Of a stretch of 18,809 nucleotides of DNA, positions 1-18,809 are shown in pieces. The notes beneath the pieces are model-generated. The model saw nothing but the letters and a program-made list of their open reading frames with translations. It was not told the origin of the DNA and did not search any database. The stretch comes from a virus. Position numbers and translations under genes: made by a program. Location: IMG/VR virus record IMGVR_UViG_3300045988_153303, one strand, 5' to 3'. Numbering within the stretch: the first letter of the stretch is position 1; the number at the start of each line of letters is the position of its first letter.

Positions 1-72
1 GTGTGTGGTGGTGGTGTTGTTGTTTCATTGGCTGTTTTTTTATTTTTTTTTCCGTGTTTGTGTGTTTTCGGG

Positions 73-101
73 TTGTGTTGTTGTTTTTTGTGTGGTATAT
101 T
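73..101 (+). promoter_or_regulatory. Early promoter inside the left ITR (TTGTGT - 17 nt - TGgTATATT, extended -10)
   Basis: TTGTGT at 73-78, a 17-nt spacer, then TGGTATATT at 93-101. It lies about 34 nt upstream of the ATG at 135, which has AAGGAG at 123-128. The same extended -10 pattern recurs at 2917-2925 and 13113-13121 on the minus strand. Confidence 0.55.
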
Positions 102-111
102 GTAATTACAA
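100..111. promoter_or_regulatory. Perfect 12-bp palindrome TTGTAATTACAA overlapping the -10/+1 region (operator-like)
   Basis: ttgtaattacaa at 100-111 equals its own reverse complement and overlaps the last two bases of the -10 hexamer (96-101). I found it only in the two ITR copies. Confidence 0.4.
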
Positions 112-134
112 ACCTCATTGGAAAGGAGAATGAA

Positions 135-476
135 ATGTTTGTTGCAACTTATTTTGCGGATGATGATTGTGTTGTTGCTGTGCGGCCTGTTGCGGTTAAG
201 GGTGATGTGGATTGGTCGTCTTTGTATATTGTGGATGATGTTACTGGTTATGGTATGTGGCAGCAGGATGGTGATGATAGGTGGTTTATTGATATTGCTC
301 CTGTGGGTGGTTATGATTTGTGGTGTGATTTGGATGCGTTGAAGATTACTGGTATTTATGGTTCTGATGGGGGTGGGTGGGAGTCTTGTGTGAATGATTT
401 TCTTGCGGATTATGGTTTTAGGCTTGGTCGGTTTGATGGTGTTAGGGGGGATAGGTATGAGTTGGTTGCGTTGTGA
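135..476 (+). CDS. ITR-encoded acidic 113-aa protein, unknown function (left copy)
   Basis: ORF 3..476 trimmed to the ATG at 135, which has AAGGAG 6 nt upstream. The discarded N-terminus (MWWWCCCFIGCFF...) lies upstream of and across the predicted promoter and looks non-protein-like. I count about 19 Asp, 2 Glu, 8 Arg/Lys and 5 Trp. A hairpin terminator follows at 494-523. Confidence 0.7.
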   Translation: MFVATYFADDDCVVAVRPVAVKGDVDWSSLYIVDDVTGYGMWQQDGDDRWFIDIAPVGGYDLWCDLDALKITGIYGSDGGGWESCVNDFLADYGFRLGRFDGVRGDRYELVAL

Positions 477-13308: not shown

Positions 13309-14757
13309 TCATAGCACGACCACCGCACCGCACGCATCATGCACGCGCTCGCCATGCCGGAATTTTTCGTAAGGAACAGGTTCGACAAAAAGACTGCCCG
13401 ACATGCAGACATCGACTTCACCATCATCACGCCACCCCTGATACCTATTCACGCCGAGAATGGTGAGCCTCTCATATCGTGCGGCAACCTTCCATTTGCC
13501 AAGCTCGGTCGCATGGATGGCACACGATTTCGGCGGCTCCCAGCCAGACAAAATGCACCCGTCCGTATTCGCATACAGCAGTCTATCCGCATTGGCATGA
13601 CAGACATCCATGAGCTTACGGCGCGCATAAGCATTGACCCATACGGGCACGGGCAAATAATCGGATTTTAGATTCGACTCGTCACGCTTCATCACATCCC
13701 ATCGCAAGGTGACACCATCATCCGAAGCAGGTATCATGACAGAACCCCTCGGTAGACTTGCCATCTTACCTACCAGCGCATTCATGACCAGTTTCGCCAT
13801 CCGCCGTCTCGCACCCGTCGCCTGCTGTTTCACCGACCCCCACTCGTCAACAAAGGATTGGAACATACCTTTTGACTGACGGAATTTCCACCCGCGCACA
13901 TACCGGTAGACCGTCACATCATAATTTTCGAAAAGCAGATGCTGGTCGATGTCGGTAAGCACGCGAACGACAAATCCACGGGTGGAAGTGAGACGGTTCA
14001 GACCGTAGACGCTCCGGTTGTCAAGCAGAAAAGGATAACCACCCGGCTTTAATTCCGCGCGGAATATCATTTCGTCGCAATGCAGTGGCATGGCGTCATC
14101 CTGCTCATATTGACCTTCGTAGGCTTCCGGCTCGCCGTAAGGAAGCCACTCATCTCGCAGGATGCTCGGATACATGGAATTGCAGTCCACGTCGATAGTC
14201 TTGCCATAAGCACCTTCACGCGCCAGCATAAATCCGCCGATATAAGCGTCGTGAAGCGACGTCTTCACCTCCGGATCGCATTGGGGGAATTTGTTTGCAT
14301 ACCACGTCCAATCACCTGATACGAAAGCTTCCATACTGGCCACTCCTGCCGTGATCCTACACAATCTCTGCCTGTCATACTCGCATAGAATGTCGAAAAG
14401 CTGGTCGTCAGTCATGGTCGCGCGGCAATTCTCCCTCAAAAGATTGGAAATATCAAAAAACCTCACCGAATTCCTCTTGGAAAGGGTTACGGTAAAGCTG
14501 AAGAATTTTCCCTTATTCGACACAATGCTATTCCAACTCATGTTGGCATAATGCGTGCTATATGGCAGGCTATGCACGACATGCGCCATGAAAGGGTCAA
14601 GCGTGTGAGGGTCGGTCATGTAGACCGTAAGTCTTCCATTAGTCATGATGGAAGCCAAGAGGCTGCGAGGTGCGACGATGTCGCACAATTGAGTGCCGTC
14701 CGTAAATCGTATAATATTGTCGGCACACCATAAGCCTACACGTTTGTCGGCGATCAT
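13309..14757 (-). CDS. Protein-primed family-B DNA polymerase (phi29 gp2-like), 482 aa
   Basis: DVDCNSMYPS (motif A, DxxSLYPS), KLVMNALVGKM (motif B, Kx3NSxYG), LLYANTDGC (motif C, YxDTD). LPYGEP is identical to phi29, and RITAGVASMEAF parallels RMTAGSDSLKGF. The protein is about 90 aa shorter than phi29 gp2, mostly in the N-terminal exonuclease region. Confidence 0.92.
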   Translation of the reverse strand: MIADKRVGLWCADNIIRFTDGTQLCDIVAPRSLLASIMTNGRLTVYMTDPHTLDPFMAHVVHSLPYSTHYANMSWNSIVSNKGKFFSFTVTLSKRNSVRFFDISNLLRENCRATMTDDQLFDILCEYDRQRLCRITAGVASMEAFVSGDWTWYANKFPQCDPEVKTSLHDAYIGGFMLAREGAYGKTIDVDCNSMYPSILRDEWLPYGEPEAYEGQYEQDDAMPLHCDEMIFRAELKPGGYPFLLDNRSVYGLNRLTSTRGFVVRVLTDIDQHLLFENYDVTVYRYVRGWKFRQSKGMFQSFVDEWGSVKQQATGARRRMAKLVMNALVGKMASLPRGSVMIPASDDGVTLRWDVMKRDESNLKSDYLPVPVWVNAYARRKLMDVCHANADRLLYANTDGCILSGWEPPKSCAIHATELGKWKVAARYERLTILGVNRYQGWRDDGEVDVCMSGSLFVEPVPYEKFRHGERVHDACGAVVVL

Positions 14758-14784
14758 GATAGATAACTTCCTTTCGATCCATTG

Positions 14785-15801
14785 TCATGCGAGTGCTTGA
14801 ACCTCGGTCATCCACCGATCGAAATTGCGGCGCGCACGTTCATACCCTTCGGTATCCTGTTTGAATATCGGTCTGAATGTATGATGCGTCTCATCATAGT
14901 CGACCCAGCCAAATACAATATGTGGGGCGTCGGTCTGTTCGATGAAAGCCCTTTTCTGGGCCGCGGTCAGACTACGGAAGCGCTTGAGCCGTTTCGCGCC
15001 GAGCGAGGAGCCAATCACCTTGCCGAAAGTGTCATACCGGCTTTTAGTCATGTAGACCGGCCATTCGCCCTTGCCGTAGAGAGCTTCCGGCTTTCCGCTC
15101 TTATACTTCTTTGCAACAGTGTGCTCGCGGTTGCGCTCCGTCCTCAGCCCAAGAATTTCGGCGGCGTCATGCATTTGGGCGAGAATTTCCTTACGATGGC
15201 CGCCTTTTAGCTGGGCACGGACGAAATCCTCGTCGTCCAATATATTGGTCATTTGAAGGAAGTCGGTCAGCTTAGATGGGATGATCAGATTGCCACTGAA
15301 TCCCATGTCTCCCGTCGTACCGGTCATTTCAGCTACACGCTGGTCGTATACGCTGACTTTCGGCATAGCCTGCGCACGATTCCATTCATTGATTTTTTCT
15401 CTAGCCGAGTTGATCTTCCGTTGTTGCTGGCGGAGGAGTTTACGCCGTTTCGCCACCGGCTCGGCCGCGATCCGTGCGTCCGATATGTCGGCGCGTGAGG
15501 CGAACATGTAATCCTTTTTTGTCGGCCGTTCTATGGCGGTGGCATGATATGGCGTCGCTTTCGCTTCCACAATGGCCTGTTTCTTCTGCCTTTCCCACTC
15601 TTGGCCAAGCGTTTTAGCAATGTTGACAAGCTGTTGGTCGGCGGTCTTGGCGAGATTCGCATGCGAATAGGTGCCAAGTTGTTTGATGTTGCGGGCGGCA
15701 CGGGCTTGCGCGGCCTGCCGTGCCTTGACATGCTTCTGCTTGCGTGACACGGGACACGTCCCTTCAGATAAGGAGAGCACCCCATGTAGAGGTGCTCTCA
15801 A
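14785..15801 (-). CDS. Terminal protein candidate (phi29 gp3 position)
   Basis: Directly upstream of the polymerase in the same operon, as in phi29. Strongly basic N-terminus (RKQKHVKARQAAQARAARNIKQ). No motif-level match is claimed. The start is uncertain: the track uses TTG at 15801, and the GTG at 15750 has GAAGGGA 8 nt upstream. Confidence 0.5.
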   Translation of the reverse strand: MRAPLHGVLSLSEGTCPVSRKQKHVKARQAAQARAARNIKQLGTYSHANLAKTADQQLVNIAKTLGQEWERQKKQAIVEAKATPYHATAIERPTKKDYMFASRADISDARIAAEPVAKRRKLLRQQQRKINSAREKINEWNRAQAMPKVSVYDQRVAEMTGTTGDMGFSGNLIIPSKLTDFLQMTNILDDEDFVRAQLKGGHRKEILAQMHDAAEILGLRTERNREHTVAKKYKSGKPEALYGKGEWPVYMTKSRYDTFGKVIGSSLGAKRLKRFRSLTAAQKRAFIEQTDAPHIVFGWVDYDETHHTFRPIFKQDTEGYERARRNFDRWMTEVQALA

Positions 15802-15833: not shown

Positions 15834-16277
15834 TCACTTCGCTTCTTCATCCACCGGCTCAATGCTGAAGAATTTAAAGCCACGGCGGGACCGACGTTCC
15901 ACCACCTTAATAGGGAGGGGAGCATCCCAAGTGTTAGGAGTACCGAAGATGCCGAACATTGTGTTCAACCCGGCCGCCAGAGTGGGGGAGGTGGCGGAGT
16001 ACGCCTTGCCATCGGCGGTGACGATGATGACACGCACTGTGGCGGAAATCTCTCCGGTCTGATCGTCGGTCACCTGTACGGCCTGTGCGACTGCATTCGA
16101 CATGAGCATGGTCTCGTTCAGATGTTCATCGAGCTTTTCAGCATTCTGAAGTGCGGAGTAGAGCTTGATCTTGCCTTCGCGGGTGCTAGTGTCGATGAAG
16201 TGCTGGACGGTGCCGAGCTCAGTGTTTTCGGTGTTGAATGCGACGAGTGCGGTGCTGTTGTCGTTTTCCATGGTCAT
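15834..16277 (-). CDS. Putative ssDNA-binding protein (phi29 gp5 position)
   Basis: 147 aa, located between the 105-aa gene and the terminal-protein candidate, matching the phi29 order 6-5-(4)-3-2. Short acidic C-terminal tail (EPVDEEAK). The assignment rests on position and size only. Confidence 0.35.
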   Translation of the reverse strand: MTMENDNSTALVAFNTENTELGTVQHFIDTSTREGKIKLYSALQNAEKLDEHLNETMLMSNAVAQAVQVTDDQTGEISATVRVIIVTADGKAYSATSPTLAAGLNTMFGIFGTPNTWDAPLPIKVVERRSRRGFKFFSIEPVDEEAK

Positions 16278-16335: not shown

Positions 16336-16653
16336 TCACATGCCGTCATTGTTTTCAATTTCGGCATGTCGTTTTTTTTCGTGTTCTTCCGGATTCCACT
16401 TCTGCGGCTCCTCAAAAGTCGCATACTTGTAAAATGTTTCGTCATCCATCGTGACCTTCTGAGAAAAGACCTCGATAGTACGCGGCATGAAATTCGGAAA
16501 AAGCTTCTTAGCACGGACCGCATACGCACGAGCATCCTTCAAACGCCCGTCAACGACATGCTCGGTCGGCATAAAATCGCCATCCACCAATTCCATGCCT
16601 CTCAATACAGCATACACACGAGTCCGGAACACTCCCGATTTTACTCGAGCCAT
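16336..16653 (-). CDS. 105-aa protein, unknown; first gene after the consensus promoter (phi29 gp6 position)
   Basis: ATG at 16651-16653 with AAGGAAAG 9 nt upstream. The composition is protein-like, and the size matches the 104-aa phi29 p6. No sequence similarity is claimed. Confidence 0.6.
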   Translation of the reverse strand: MARVKSGVFRTRVYAVLRGMELVDGDFMPTEHVVDGRLKDARAYAVRAKKLFPNFMPRTIEVFSQKVTMDDETFYKYATFEEPQKWNPEEHEKKRHAEIENNDGM

Positions 16654-16659
16654 AATAGC

Positions 16660-17187
16660 CTACTTTCCTTGATCAAAAATCCTTGACAATTCCTTATCAT
16701 TATAACGAGTCACATCAAGTCTGTCAAAATTCTTAAAGACCGCAATAATAAGATTACGCGCCCGCACATCGTCGAAAAGAGCACAACAATCAAAGCTCGT
16801 ACCCCCCTTGACCGCACACACCGCGCACCAAGCGATCAGATTCACAGGATCCACCGTACCATCCAAATACTCCACATCGAAAGTACGAGACAGCGCCGAC
16901 TGCAAACCATCCCCCCGACTCAAAGAGCCAGCAATCCGCACGACCATGAGGACAGCCTGATCAAACCACGGATTAACCCCCTCTCGCCACAATTCACACA
17001 GCATAGCAACAGCCCGACAACACGTCTCGAAGTCACCACACCCCTCATCATAGCGGCCCAAGGAAGCCTCACGCATACGACCACACAGCGCCCTACGAAT
17101 ACGCGGCGACTCCATGATCGCATCATCAAAATCACGCATACGATAGATCGGGACCCAACCATCCCCCCGGACAAAACCCTTAGACAT
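16660..17187 (-). CDS. Early protein, about 175 aa, unknown function
   Basis: Long ORF 16660..17220. I prefer the ATG at 17185-17187 (GAGGA 8 nt upstream, 8-nt overlap with the upstream gene) over the ATG at 17220 (41-nt overlap). Helix-rich, Cys-rich sequence with no motif I recognise. Confidence 0.6.
   Translation of the reverse strand: MSKGFVRGDGWVPIYRMRDFDDAIMESPRIRRALCGRMREASLGRYDEGCGDFETCCRAVAMLCELWREGVNPWFDQAVLMVVRIAGSLSRGDGLQSALSRTFDVEYLDGTVDPVNLIAWCAVCAVKGGTSFDCCALFDDVRARNLIIAVFKNFDRLDVTRYNDKELSRIFDQGK
16699..16727 (-). promoter_or_regulatory. Consensus sigma-70-type promoter TTGACA - 17 nt - TATAAT for the replication module
   Basis: + strand attata at 16699-16704 and tgtcaa at 16722-16727, with exactly 17 nt between them. 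On the minus strand this reads TTGACA-N17-TATAAT. The -10 hexamer ends about 45 nt upstream of the ATG at 16653. The promoter lies inside the 3' end of the 16660..17187 CDS. Confidence 0.75.
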
Positions 17188-17353
17188 AATACCGATCCTC
17201 GATCCTAAAATAGGAGACATCCTTTACACGCTCCGGCCTATCAGCCCACTCACGAACTATCTTGTAACCCTCATCATACGACGACGCATAGCCGATCTCG
17301 ACAGGCTCACCACCATGACGCAAATACGCCAAAACAGTAAAAGTCTTATACAT
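17180..17353 (-). CDS. Early protein, 57 aa, unknown function (below the ORF-track size cut-off)
   Basis: Hand translation: MYKTFTVLAYLRHGGEPVEIGYASSYDEGYKIVREWADRPERVKDVSYFRIEDRYYV. AGGA lies 9 nt upstream. It fills the gap between neighbouring genes; the upstream stop at 17357 is 3 nt away. Confidence 0.45.
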   Translation of the reverse strand: MYKTFTVLAYLRHGGEPVEIGYASSYDEGYKIVREWADRPERVKDVSYFRIEDRYYV

Positions 17354-17356
17354 GAT

Positions 17357-17569
17357 TCACATTCCTAACGTTTCATACTGCTCGACACTCCAATCATGCC
17401 CACATACCCACATGTCATGCCAGACGGCAATCAGACGACGCGGACAGCGAGTCGGTGCAACAAAACGACGATTCCGATAGCCACTCCAGAAAGCACGAAG
17501 CCGCCAATACGCCTCCGCATCCGGACAATCACCACACGTGAGCGAATGAACAAAGCCACAAAAATACAT
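17357..17569 (-). CDS. Early protein, about 70 aa, Cys/Trp-rich, unknown function
   Basis: The track ORF 17357..17572 starts at GTG. The ATG at 17567-17569 shares one base with the upstream TGA (TGATG), suggesting translational coupling. Confidence 0.5.
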   Translation of the reverse strand: MYFCGFVHSLTCGDCPDAEAYWRLRAFWSGYRNRRFVAPTRCPRRLIAVWHDMWVCGHDWSVEQYETLGM

Positions 17570-17799
17570 CACCCCCTCCTTTCGACAGATTCTGCGGCAA
17601 GACTAATAGCATCCAACACCATACTCCCCATCTCACTCGGCTTCGTTACATCATAATAACAAGAAGACATCACACCACCCCCCGTACGATACCTCAACAC
17701 CAGCATCTGCTGATGCGGACAATACTCACACCCCACATTACCAGCTATATGCGGGCTATAAAACACGGCGATTTTCACATCACGCGCAGACGATTTCAT
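17569..17799 (-). CDS. Early protein, about 76 aa, unknown function
   Basis: ORF 17569..17844 trimmed to the ATG at 17797-17799, which has GAAAGGA 5 nt upstream. This removes the overlap with the upstream gene, which ends at 17814. Confidence 0.5.
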   Translation of the reverse strand: MKSSARDVKIAVFYSPHIAGNVGCEYCPHQQMLVLRYRTGGGVMSSCYYDVTKPSEMGSMVLDAISLAAESVERRG

Positions 17800-17813
17800 G
17801 ACAATCCTTTCGA

Positions 17814-18122
17814 TCAAAATTTTCCAAGAATACGATGCTCCCACGAGACATACTCATCATACCACTCGGAACATACCAGCTCATCCAAAGACAAGCCAAC
17901 AACACAGGCACGCTTACACGCCATATATCCGTCCAGCAAATCATAAGCCGTAAGCGCCAGCCACAAACGGCCGTCAGCCAGTACGAAAAACTCATGATAC
18001 GGCCGACGACACCCCGGATGCTTCCACGTCCACACGAACACAACCCTCCGCAAAGACTTCGAATCAACCAAAGTAAAATAATGATGTTGCATAACATCAT
18101 CAACACACAACACAACACTCAC
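17814..18122 (-). CDS. Early protein, 102 aa, unknown function
   Basis: GTG start overlapping the upstream stop (GTGA), with GAGG 4 nt upstream. More protein-like than the competing frame 17780..18118. 5 Trp and 5 Cys. Confidence 0.55.
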   Translation of the reverse strand: MSVVLCVDDVMQHHYFTLVDSKSLRRVVFVWTWKHPGCRRPYHEFFVLADGRLWLALTAYDLLDGYMACKRACVVGLSLDELVCSEWYDEYVSWEHRILGKF

Positions 18123-18334
18123 CTCCCCTCACACACAGGATCAAAAGCCATACAATAACGAGCCCAGCCAATAAGCTGAGCCGAAAACAACATCGCACGA
18201 TCCGCACTCACCTCAAAACGATAAACACTACCATCCAAACCAATATACGCAACGGTAGCAACACCATCCGAACGCTGAACAATACTGACACTAAAATGCT
18301 CCACAATACACTCCTTACCTACAAATACTCCCAT
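18119..18334 (-). CDS. Early protein, about 71 aa, unknown function
   Basis: The ATG at 18332-18334 shares one base with the TGA of the ITR gene (TGATG), exactly at the inner ITR boundary. Confidence 0.5.
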   Translation of the reverse strand: MGVFVGKECIVEHFSVSIVQRSDGVATVAYIGLDGSVYRFEVSADRAMLFSAQLIGWARYCMAFDPVCEGR

Positions 18335-18675
18335 CACAACGCAACCAACTCATACCTATCCCCCCTAACACCATCAAACCGACCAAGCCTAAAACCATAA
18401 TCCGCAAGAAAATCATTCACACAAGACTCCCACCCACCCCCATCAGAACCATAAATACCAGTAATCTTCAACGCATCCAAATCACACCACAAATCATAAC
18501 CACCCACAGGAGCAATATCAATAAACCACCTATCATCACCATCCTGCTGCCACATACCATAACCAGTAACATCATCCACAATATACAAAGACGACCAATC
18601 CACATCACCCTTAACCGCAACAGGCCGCACAGCAACAACACAATCATCATCCGCAAAATAAGTTGCAACAAACAT
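18334..18675 (-). CDS. ITR-encoded acidic 113-aa protein (right copy, first gene of the early operon)
   Basis: Mirror image of 135..476, with identical sequence. Confidence 0.7.
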   Translation of the reverse strand: MFVATYFADDDCVVAVRPVAVKGDVDWSSLYIVDDVTGYGMWQQDGDDRWFIDIAPVGGYDLWCDLDALKITGIYGSDGGGWESCVNDFLADYGFRLGRFDGVRGDRYELVAL

Positions 18676-18698
18676 TTCATTCTCCTTTCCAATGAGGT

Positions 18699-18710
18699 TT
18701 GTAATTACAA
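18699..18710. promoter_or_regulatory. Right-arm copy of the TTGTAATTACAA palindrome
   Basis: Mirror of 100-111 within the ITR. Confidence 0.4.
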
Positions 18711-18737
18711 TATACCACACAAAAAACAACAACACAA
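18709..18737 (-). promoter_or_regulatory. Early promoter inside the right ITR
   Basis: Mirror of 73-101. Here it would drive the whole right-arm early operon. Confidence 0.55.
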
Positions 18738-18809
18738 CCCGAAAACACACAAACACGGAAAAAAAAATAAAAAAACAGCCAATGAAACAACAACACCACC
18801 ACCACACAC

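Follow-up and report, generated by a model that had tools for sequence, protein, structure and literature searches.

A phi29-like phage DNA polymerase with a reduced exonuclease-type domain that probably lacks proofreading

Phi29-type DNA polymerases work processively as a closed ring around DNA without accessory subunits (PMC6351526), and in phi29 the exonuclease domain, together with TPR2, palm and fingers, forms the downstream-template tunnel that enables strand displacement (PMC6351526). The exonuclease domain is generally treated as a constant of protein-primed family B DNA polymerases (pPolBs), and a survey found it conserved in all family B polymerases except the mavirus type (PMC11161782). 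Here we describe a clade that departs from this pattern, starting from a pPolB of 482 amino acids (aa) encoded in IMG/VR virus record IMGVR_UViG_3300045988_153303, a stretch of 18,809 nucleotides (the window). The first ~135 residues of this protein derive from a 3'-5' exonuclease domain whose fold has been reduced and whose metal-binding and catalytic residues have gone. Based on sequence comparison and structural models, the best explanation, to which we assign a probability of roughly 0.8, is that the exonuclease-derived N-terminus has been kept as a structural part but is catalytically empty, leaving the enzyme without intrinsic proofreading.

13309–14757, minus strand: family B DNA polymerase of the protein-primed type, 482 aa (PF03175, phmmer, AlphaFold2 model, Foldseek)
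14353–14757, minus strand: shrunken exonuclease-fold domain, residues 1–135, without the catalytic set (hhalign, DSSP, substitution rates)

The open reading frame (ORF) matched PF03175 with 88.1 bits against a cut-off of 25.8, and residues 156–387 aligned to profile positions 197–437 of 468, so that the exonuclease half of the profile remained unaligned. A phmmer search against PDB sequences returned the phi29 polymerase (1xhx, E = 2e-40) as the only strong match, with residues 125–435 aligned to phi29 178–496 continuously across TPR1 and TPR2. The AlphaFold2 model, built from 97 sequences, had a predicted local distance difference test (pLDDT) score of 93.6 and a predicted template modelling score of 0.91, with N-terminal blocks above 90 from residue 11 onward and a TPR2-like hairpin at residues 339–357. 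Foldseek aligned the model with every phi29 polymerase chain across the whole target, the phi29 exonuclease domain included, at template modelling scores of 0.78–0.83; other family B polymerases reached at most 0.43. The C-terminal/thumb region (13309–13500, minus strand) was also reduced relative to phi29, by a loss of ~35 residues that takes in the insertion between the last palm strands and the C-terminal hairpin; the protein ends in GAVVVL.

A preliminary description of this DNA, made from the sequence alone, had located the shrunken domain at 14359–14757; on the minus strand, these coordinates encode residues 1–133 of the ORF. Its estimate of about 60 aa missing ahead of motif A agreed with the 58-residue difference between D191 and phi29 D249, and 53 of these 58 residues precede the conserved T-x-G (T136 versus phi29 T189). 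It had also named an upstream extension or a sequencing error as a possible source of a canonical N-terminus, and both were excluded. Upstream of the ATG, nine in-frame codons (QWIERKLSI) are preceded by a TGA at 14787–14785, and the 27-nt spacer after the upstream gene holds a Shine-Dalgarno-like GGAAAGGAAG. A homologue search in 5.8 billion proteins found 172 sequences; the 120 listed are 72–98% identical, come from independent metagenomic samples, share the N-terminus, and are nearly all 482–484 aa long. The nearby in-frame stop, the spacer and the homologues of equal length together indicate that the short N-terminus is real.

An exhaustive HMMER search of 1.84 billion representatives of 50%-identity clusters yielded 1,644 relatives. 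The top ~20 were 454–496 aa long and 29–41% identical, apart from three fragments and one 549-aa sequence, and the remainder were mostly 520–640 aa. In a neighbour-joining (NJ) tree of the polymerase domain, the short polymerases formed one clade, and its sister was a 510-aa protein that also lacks the Exo motifs.

In a profile-profile comparison with hhalign, the first 160 columns of the clade matched the first 210 columns of the 119 canonical relatives (probability 98.5%, E = 1.7e-15). A search of sequences with the clade's hidden Markov model reached phi29 residues 29–105 with only 5.9 bits, which is insignificant, and the N-terminal homology was detectable only through profile-profile and structure comparison. 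For the structural comparison we used the canonical relative P0175 (577 aa, 51% identical to and colinear with phi29, model pLDDT 97.3) as a yardstick. The domain comprises 135 residues versus ~189 in phi29, and DSSP assigned it the element order b1-b2-b3-aA-b4-aB-b-b-b5-aC, as in P0175, which identifies it as an RNase H-like fold. The residue map below is anchored on these secondary-structure elements.

P0175, residues 2–10: strand b1, holding D7 and E9 (phi29 D12 and E14)
P0175, strand b4: ends at residue 55 and is followed by N57 (phi29 N62)
P0175, helix aB: starts at residue 58, its fourth residue being D61 (phi29 D66)
P0175, residues 132–154: loop carrying K138 (phi29 K143)
P0175, residues 155–177: helix aC, holding Y160 and D164 (phi29 Y165 and D169)
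P0175, residue 183: linker threonine T183 (phi29 T189)
482-aa protein, first half of the domain: b1 5–10, a five-residue turn, b2 16–18, b3 23–24, aA 30–39, b4 42–47, aB 50–63
482-aa protein, rest of the domain: strands 74–80, 85–91 and 97–102, short helices 103–106 and 111–114, aC 117–129, then T136
14713–14745, minus strand: Exo I position, residues 5–15 (KRVGLWCADNI), b1 and turn, with no D-x-E
14584–14625, minus strand: Exo II position, residues 45–58 (VYMTDPHTLDPFMA), end of b4 and start of aB
14434–14454, minus strand: residues 102–108 (DISNLLR), in place of the phi29 D121-S122-L123 (S/T)Lx2h loop, with FFDISNLL paired to IYDSLKKL by hhalign
14371–14427, minus strand: Exo III position, residues 111–129 (CRATMTDDQLFDILCEYDR), with Y165 mapped to A113 and D169 to D117
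14344–14352, minus strand: T136-A-G, containing the invariant exonuclease-polymerase linker threonine (phi29 T189), present in 18/18 short-clade clusters and 118/119 canonical relatives

At Exo I, strand b1 of P0175 contains both the Asp and the Glu; here b1 (KRVGLW, residues 5–10) is free of acids and D13 lies in the turn that follows. The clade alignment placed A12 and N14 in the columns of phi29 D12 and E14, which reproduced the pairing of SCDFETT with WCADNII in the preliminary description. An alternative hhalign placement of residues 4–10 on phi29 strand b2, with b1 missing, was judged unlikely, as the model has three strands before aA and many clade members show an 'h-h-x-D-G' strand end that resembles D12. 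The Exo III assignment, obtained by a gapless count back from T136 = T189, likewise reproduced the earlier pairing of YIKNDIQII with ATMTDDQLF, in which Asp169 is kept (D117) and Tyr165 is lost (A113). Ahead of Exo III, the loop of ~25–35 residues that carries Lys143 is deleted (the hhalign gap there spans 35 residues), and phi29 S122 and L123 map to I103 and S104.

The earlier placement of Exo II, in which FHNLKFDGAF was aligned to YANMSWNSIV, had to be revised. It had been anchored on an equivalence of LDEFMAWV with LDPFMAHV, which we rejected because LDPFMAHV, situated in helix 50–63 after strand 42–47, is the Exo II helix (aB) itself and not the helix upstream of it. MAFFT, hhalign and hmmsearch alike paired LDPFMAHV with FDGAFIINW, and YANMSWNSIV falls in the following loop and strand. 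The two profile methods, hhalign and hmmsearch, thus agreed on the Exo II helix. On our map, phi29 N62 corresponds to D49 and D66 to L53, with D54 adjacent; hhalign and hmmsearch put D66 at T52.

An alignment-free check gave the same picture. Residues 1–140 are free of D-x-[DE], N-x3-D and [YFH]-x3-D, and Glu first appears in the protein at residue 109, so that no alignment can yield a canonical DEDDy site. The four carboxylates and Exo III Tyr that define DEDDy membership are not assembled here, and among the Exo I, II and III, Kx2h and (S/T)Lx2h motifs only the D169 equivalent (D117) is in place. Among the 119 canonical relatives (520–640 aa), D12, E14, N62, D66, Y165, D169, K143 and S122 were each found in 104–110 sequences. 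The claim that three of the four catalytic carboxylates are lost stands as a strict positional count, but it is beyond dispute only for Glu14. The wider proposal of a shrunken exonuclease domain without proofreading held in its core, with support from profile-profile comparison, two predicted structures, Foldseek, motif checks and clade-wide loss; its Exo II details did not.

Analysis of 18 non-redundant clade members revealed no N-terminal column with more than ~60% Asp or Glu, and none of the 18 has acids at all four carboxylate positions. Positions 52–54 are not conserved acids in the clade, and the sister lineages mostly have Gly at position 13 and vary at position 54. Two distant clade members come from phi29-like genomes of 17–20 kb with the order single-stranded DNA-binding protein (SSB), ORF of terminal protein (TP) size, polymerase and capsid, and no recognisable exonuclease gene was found in these two genomes. 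Judged from these sequences, exonuclease loss is ancestral to the whole clade of 454–496-aa polymerases, carried by similar 17–20-kb phages. Replication in this phage and in its whole lineage of relatives probably proceeds with no built-in error correction.

Variation exists within the clade. In the honeybee Bifidobacterium phage lineage (BadAargau2 polymerase, L003 1312–2724; P0132 and P0139), the N-terminus is shorter still, and the BadAztec lineage lacks equivalents of residues 1–~18 (b1 and b2) in the alignment. The exonuclease-type fold of the BadAargau2/BadAztec lineage may be incomplete, as far as the alignment indicates.

Outside the short clade, degenerate Exo motifs were found in at least 12 further 50%-identity clusters of normal-length relatives (520–590 aa) that are otherwise well aligned, and many of these clusters also lack the motif B Tyr.

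Degenerate normal-length pPolBs: P0223, P0181, P0235, P0199, P0248, P0236, P0153, P0210, P0229, P0142, P0177, P0194
P0223: YFLTT in place of DFETT, with L and S in place of the Exo III Tyr and Asp
P0181: DFLTT in place of DFETT
P0235: DFQTV in place of DFETT

Their scattered placement on the NJ tree suggests that proofreading was lost repeatedly and independently, as read from their motifs. The presumed lack of proofreading is therefore unusual for the polymerase class, as the preliminary description had stated, but not unique to this protein, being shared across its clade, with degenerate Exo motifs in the other clusters as well. Eggerthella phage LE1-1 and Hungatella phage CH17P1, considered as cultured cases of a dead exonuclease, were rejected, both being canonical.

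The polymerase motifs differed from those of phi29 in two respects.

14164–14193, minus strand: motif A, DVDCNSMYPS, residues 189–198, with D191 equivalent to phi29 catalytic D249
13765–13794, minus strand: motif B, KLVMNALVGK, residues 322–331, with Val329 in place of the Tyr (phi29 Y390)
13555–13575, minus strand: motif C, YANTDGC, residues 395–401, with D399 equivalent to phi29 D458 and Asn397 in place of D456

The catalytic Asp of motif A (Dx2SLYP; D191) and the second Asp of motif C (DTD; D399) occur in 18/18 clade members and 119/119 canonical relatives, and motif B shows no variation at its Lys and Asn. K322, N326 and G330 of motif B are present, and the Tyr of Kx3NSxYG is missing; this Tyr occurs in none of 20 short-clade sequences versus 99 of 119 canonical ones. 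The residue (phi29 Y390) has been described as invariant in family B polymerases and as one that determines preference in insertion and extension (PMC1976434). Asn takes the place of the first Asp of motif C (YxDTDS) in all 120 close relatives (NTDG) and in about half of the clade, against Asp in 118 of 119 canonical sequences. The three motif strings quoted in the preliminary description are present, but its view that they are intact does not extend to these two positions. Cultured phages carry the same substitutions, and on this comparison the 482-aa enzyme is evidently functional as a polymerase.

To examine the constraint on the N-terminal domain, the gene was compared by codons with three relatives. 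The ratio of nonsynonymous to synonymous substitution rates was 0.10–0.16 for residues 1–135 and 0.09–0.10 for residues 136–482; the N-terminal domain is not decaying and is constrained almost as strongly as the polymerase proper. Conserved non-catalytic residues in the clade domain include Gly at position 21, an aromatic residue or Ile at 86 (F86 corresponds to phi29 Tyr101), Asn105 in 18/18 clade clusters and Arg108 in 14/18. In phi29, Tyr101 and Thr189 line the downstream-template tunnel, and the 121–125 loop packs on the 183–189 linker (PMC6351526). Because the domain is under purifying selection and template-tunnel residues (F86 and T136) are kept, we read its role as structural. The domain would form a wall of the template tunnel and partner with TPR2 and the exonuclease-polymerase linker, with residues that have a tunnel role (F86, T136 and the clade-specific Asn105/Arg108 loop) retained while the catalytic positions drift. 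Replication would start by protein priming on the product of the upstream gene and then proceed by processive strand displacement as in phi29. Fidelity would come from nucleotide selection alone, itself presumably altered by the Val that replaces the motif B Tyr, and a genome of 18.8 kb could plausibly tolerate the lowered fidelity.

Several observations weigh against this interpretation. Three of the four carboxylate positions have an Asp in place or no more than one residue away (D13, D54 and D117), and these residues are kept in 119, 110 and 119 of the 120 close relatives. The Exo I mapping, on which hhalign (b2) and the model (b1) differ, is the least certain part of the map. In phi29, mutating the exonuclease metal ligands also weakens strand displacement (PMC6351526), and a purely structural role would therefore need compensating changes in the clade. 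The first of these points could mean that the domain is still a weak or non-canonical exonuclease, in which D13, D54 and D117 with D49/N49 form a reduced metal site in a BP1-like subfamily, and both the purifying selection on the domain and the Asn, typical of the canonical motif, that 67 of 120 relatives have at position 49 would fit such a site. However, no alignment supplies a Glu or second acid for Exo I, and the protein has lost the Exo III Tyr, Lys143 loop and S122 position. Mutagenesis of phi29 is reported to show that substituting any one of the four carboxylates cuts exonuclease activity by orders of magnitude. The three Asp are not retained in the sister lineages, and 51% of N-terminal positions are at least 90% conserved among the 120 close relatives at the same divergence, so that specific conservation of D13, D54 and D117 above background was rejected. 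Given this high background and the variation in sister lineages, the three-Asp site keeps a low but non-zero weight, and we consider residual activity unlikely.

A separate exonuclease of the host or the phage could instead proofread in trans, leaving fidelity unreduced even with a dead domain. Bacterial replicases have trans-acting proofreading subunits, and several small early ORFs of unknown function lie within 16336–18337. Pfam and PHROGs scans of the ten early ORFs, however, gave no exonuclease or other family match, the two distant clade genomes offered no candidate either, and closed-ring replication of the phi29 type leaves an external editor little access; such rescue seems quite improbable. 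That the protein is not an active replicase was considered in view of its motif B and motif C substitutions, which affect residues conserved in 99 and 118 of the 119 canonical relatives. The retained D191, D399 and motif B Lys and Asn, the strong purifying selection on the polymerase domain, the position as sole polymerase gene beside terminal repeats, an SSB gene and a TP-sized gene, and the propagation of cultured phages with the same NTDG and VG motifs make this very unlikely. For an artefact, in which a mis-called start, frameshift or assembly error removed a canonical N-terminus, no supporting evidence was found; the in-frame stop 10 codons upstream, the ribosome-binding-like spacer sequence, the length and N-terminus shared by the ~120 independent-sample homologues and four cultured phages, and the confident domain model (pLDDT >90 from residue 11) leave it next to no credence. 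The enzyme thus most probably lacks intrinsic proofreading, as motif analysis and the models suggest.

A broader proposal follows, which we advance tentatively, at slightly less than even odds. A phi29-like lineage that includes BP1, BD811P1-3 and BadAztec may replicate double-stranded DNA with a naturally proofreading-dead, miniature pPolB that also lacks the motif B Tyr, at a markedly raised mutation rate. Exonuclease inactivation might moreover be recurrent and independent in other phage pPolB lineages, often accompanied by loss of the motif B Tyr, as a recurring route to low fidelity in very small tailed phages.

Perfect inverted terminal repeats (ITRs) of 476 bp bound the window, which is a complete linear phage genome. 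The minus strand carries nearly all of the long ORFs, and the polymerase ORF is the sole polymerase gene; the SSB gene and the TP-sized ORF both lie upstream of it.

1–476: left ITR, 476 nt, 100% complementary to 18334–18809
18334–18809: right ITR, pairing with the left ITR
14785–15801, minus strand: 338-aa candidate terminal protein, assigned from position and synteny alone
15834–16277, minus strand: phi29-type SSB (PF17427, E = 2e-20; phrog_6243)

A tblastn search of cultured phages with the polymerase ORF identified Bifidobacterium phages BP1 (75% identity) and BD811P1-3 (70–73%) as the closest relatives, followed by the honeybee Bifidobacterium phages BadAargau/BadAztec (~32%) and then by Actinomyces phage Av-1, Curtobacterium phages and the Bacillus phi29 group. 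The genes of BP1 follow the same order (SSB, ~350-aa ORF, polymerase, major capsid, tail, portal), and the order SSB, ORF of ~300–340 aa and polymerase is common to the present genome, Av-1, BP1 and the distant clade members. The 338-aa ORF matched no Pfam or PHROG family, and its candidacy as a homologue of the annotated Av-1 terminal protein was rejected, as BLASTP detected no similarity; by gene order alone it is a candidate terminal protein. The terminal-protein candidate and the polymerase share a reading frame at 14758–14787 (minus strand), with one TGA and nine codons between them. Because BP1 has the two genes in different frames, the shared frame is probably a coincidence and not a read-through fusion. 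No helicase gene is present, judging by the Pfam and PHROGs scans. The ITRs carry a gene in two copies, an identical inward-reading ORF at 3–476 (plus strand) and 18334–18807 (minus strand), whose likely start is the ATG at 135 following GGAAAGGAG, giving ~113 aa; it had no family match. A hairpin and a T-run were observed at ~496–525, just beyond the ITR.

Base composition was strongly skewed at the termini. The first 500 bases showed a GC skew of +0.64 and an AT skew of −0.47, and the opposite end mirrored these values; reading inward from either 5' end, the strand is rich in G+T, and its first 26 bases are G and T only. The skew had faded by ~2 kb (regions 1–2000 and 16800–18809), well past the 476-bp ITR, and it was weaker in the deposited sequence of BP1, which has the same polymerase type. 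Because genes at both ends lie on the same strand, the skew tracks distance from the end and not the coding strand. The pattern speaks for strand-asymmetric replication from both termini or for single-strand exposure, not for an effect of polymerase fidelity. No evidence was found to tie missing proofreading to the terminal skew, a connection raised in the preliminary description.

A literature search returned no description of exonuclease-dead phi29-like phage polymerases, and a review that mentions these Bifidobacterium phages is silent on the matter. The protein family itself is already in GenBank, where records for BP1/BD811P/BadAztec-type polymerases read only 'DNA polymerase' or 'hypothetical protein'. 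With cultured members available, the clade offers a natural system for studying the share of proofreading in phage mutation rate and in gut evolvability, and it may show which parts of the exonuclease domain serve strand displacement and processivity only. A smaller, naturally exonuclease-minus, strand-displacing polymerase also raises the question of use in amplification and sequencing, which now depend on engineered D12A/D66A phi29 mutants.

Compared with the phi29 DNA polymerase (gp2; 1XHX, 2PYJ, 2EX3), the 482-aa enzyme shares the fold (Foldseek template modelling score 0.82–0.83), a continuous TPR1-TPR2-palm-fingers alignment, the catalytic Asp of motifs A and C, and equivalents of the tunnel residues Y101 and T189; both are encoded in linear genomes with SSB, TP and polymerase genes, the TP here being assigned by position. 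It differs in being 93 residues shorter, with an exonuclease domain of 135 versus 189 residues and a shorter thumb, and in having no D12/E14/D66/Y165 signature, no K143 loop and no S122 motif. Val replaces the motif B Tyr and Asn the first Asp of motif C, and the ITRs are 476 bp long versus 6 bp in phi29. The polymerases of BP1 and BD811P1-3 (70–75% identity) and of BadAztec/BadAargau (~32%) belong to the same clade, with 470–483 aa, a degenerate N-terminal domain and the same gene order.

More distant parallels exist in other replication systems. Pol zeta has an inactivated exonuclease domain (PMC7544198), and Pol alpha and Pol zeta resemble the present enzyme in being family B polymerases that kept the exonuclease fold structurally after catalytic loss; however, they are RNA/DNA-primed, multi-subunit cellular enzymes of another family B branch, and the loss there was independent. 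The mavirus-like virophage pPolB and the polinton-like pPolB-S1H are protein-primed and have lost proofreading (PMC11161782). In these eukaryotic Varidnaviria elements the exonuclease domain was mostly or fully deleted and a helicase was gained, whereas in the tailed phage described here the domain is kept, folded according to the model, and under selection. The divPolA1 polymerases of Caudoviricetes offer a phage counterpart in family A, with predicted polymerase activity and all exonuclease aspartates replaced (PMC11348598), but they belong to a different polymerase family and are not protein-primed.

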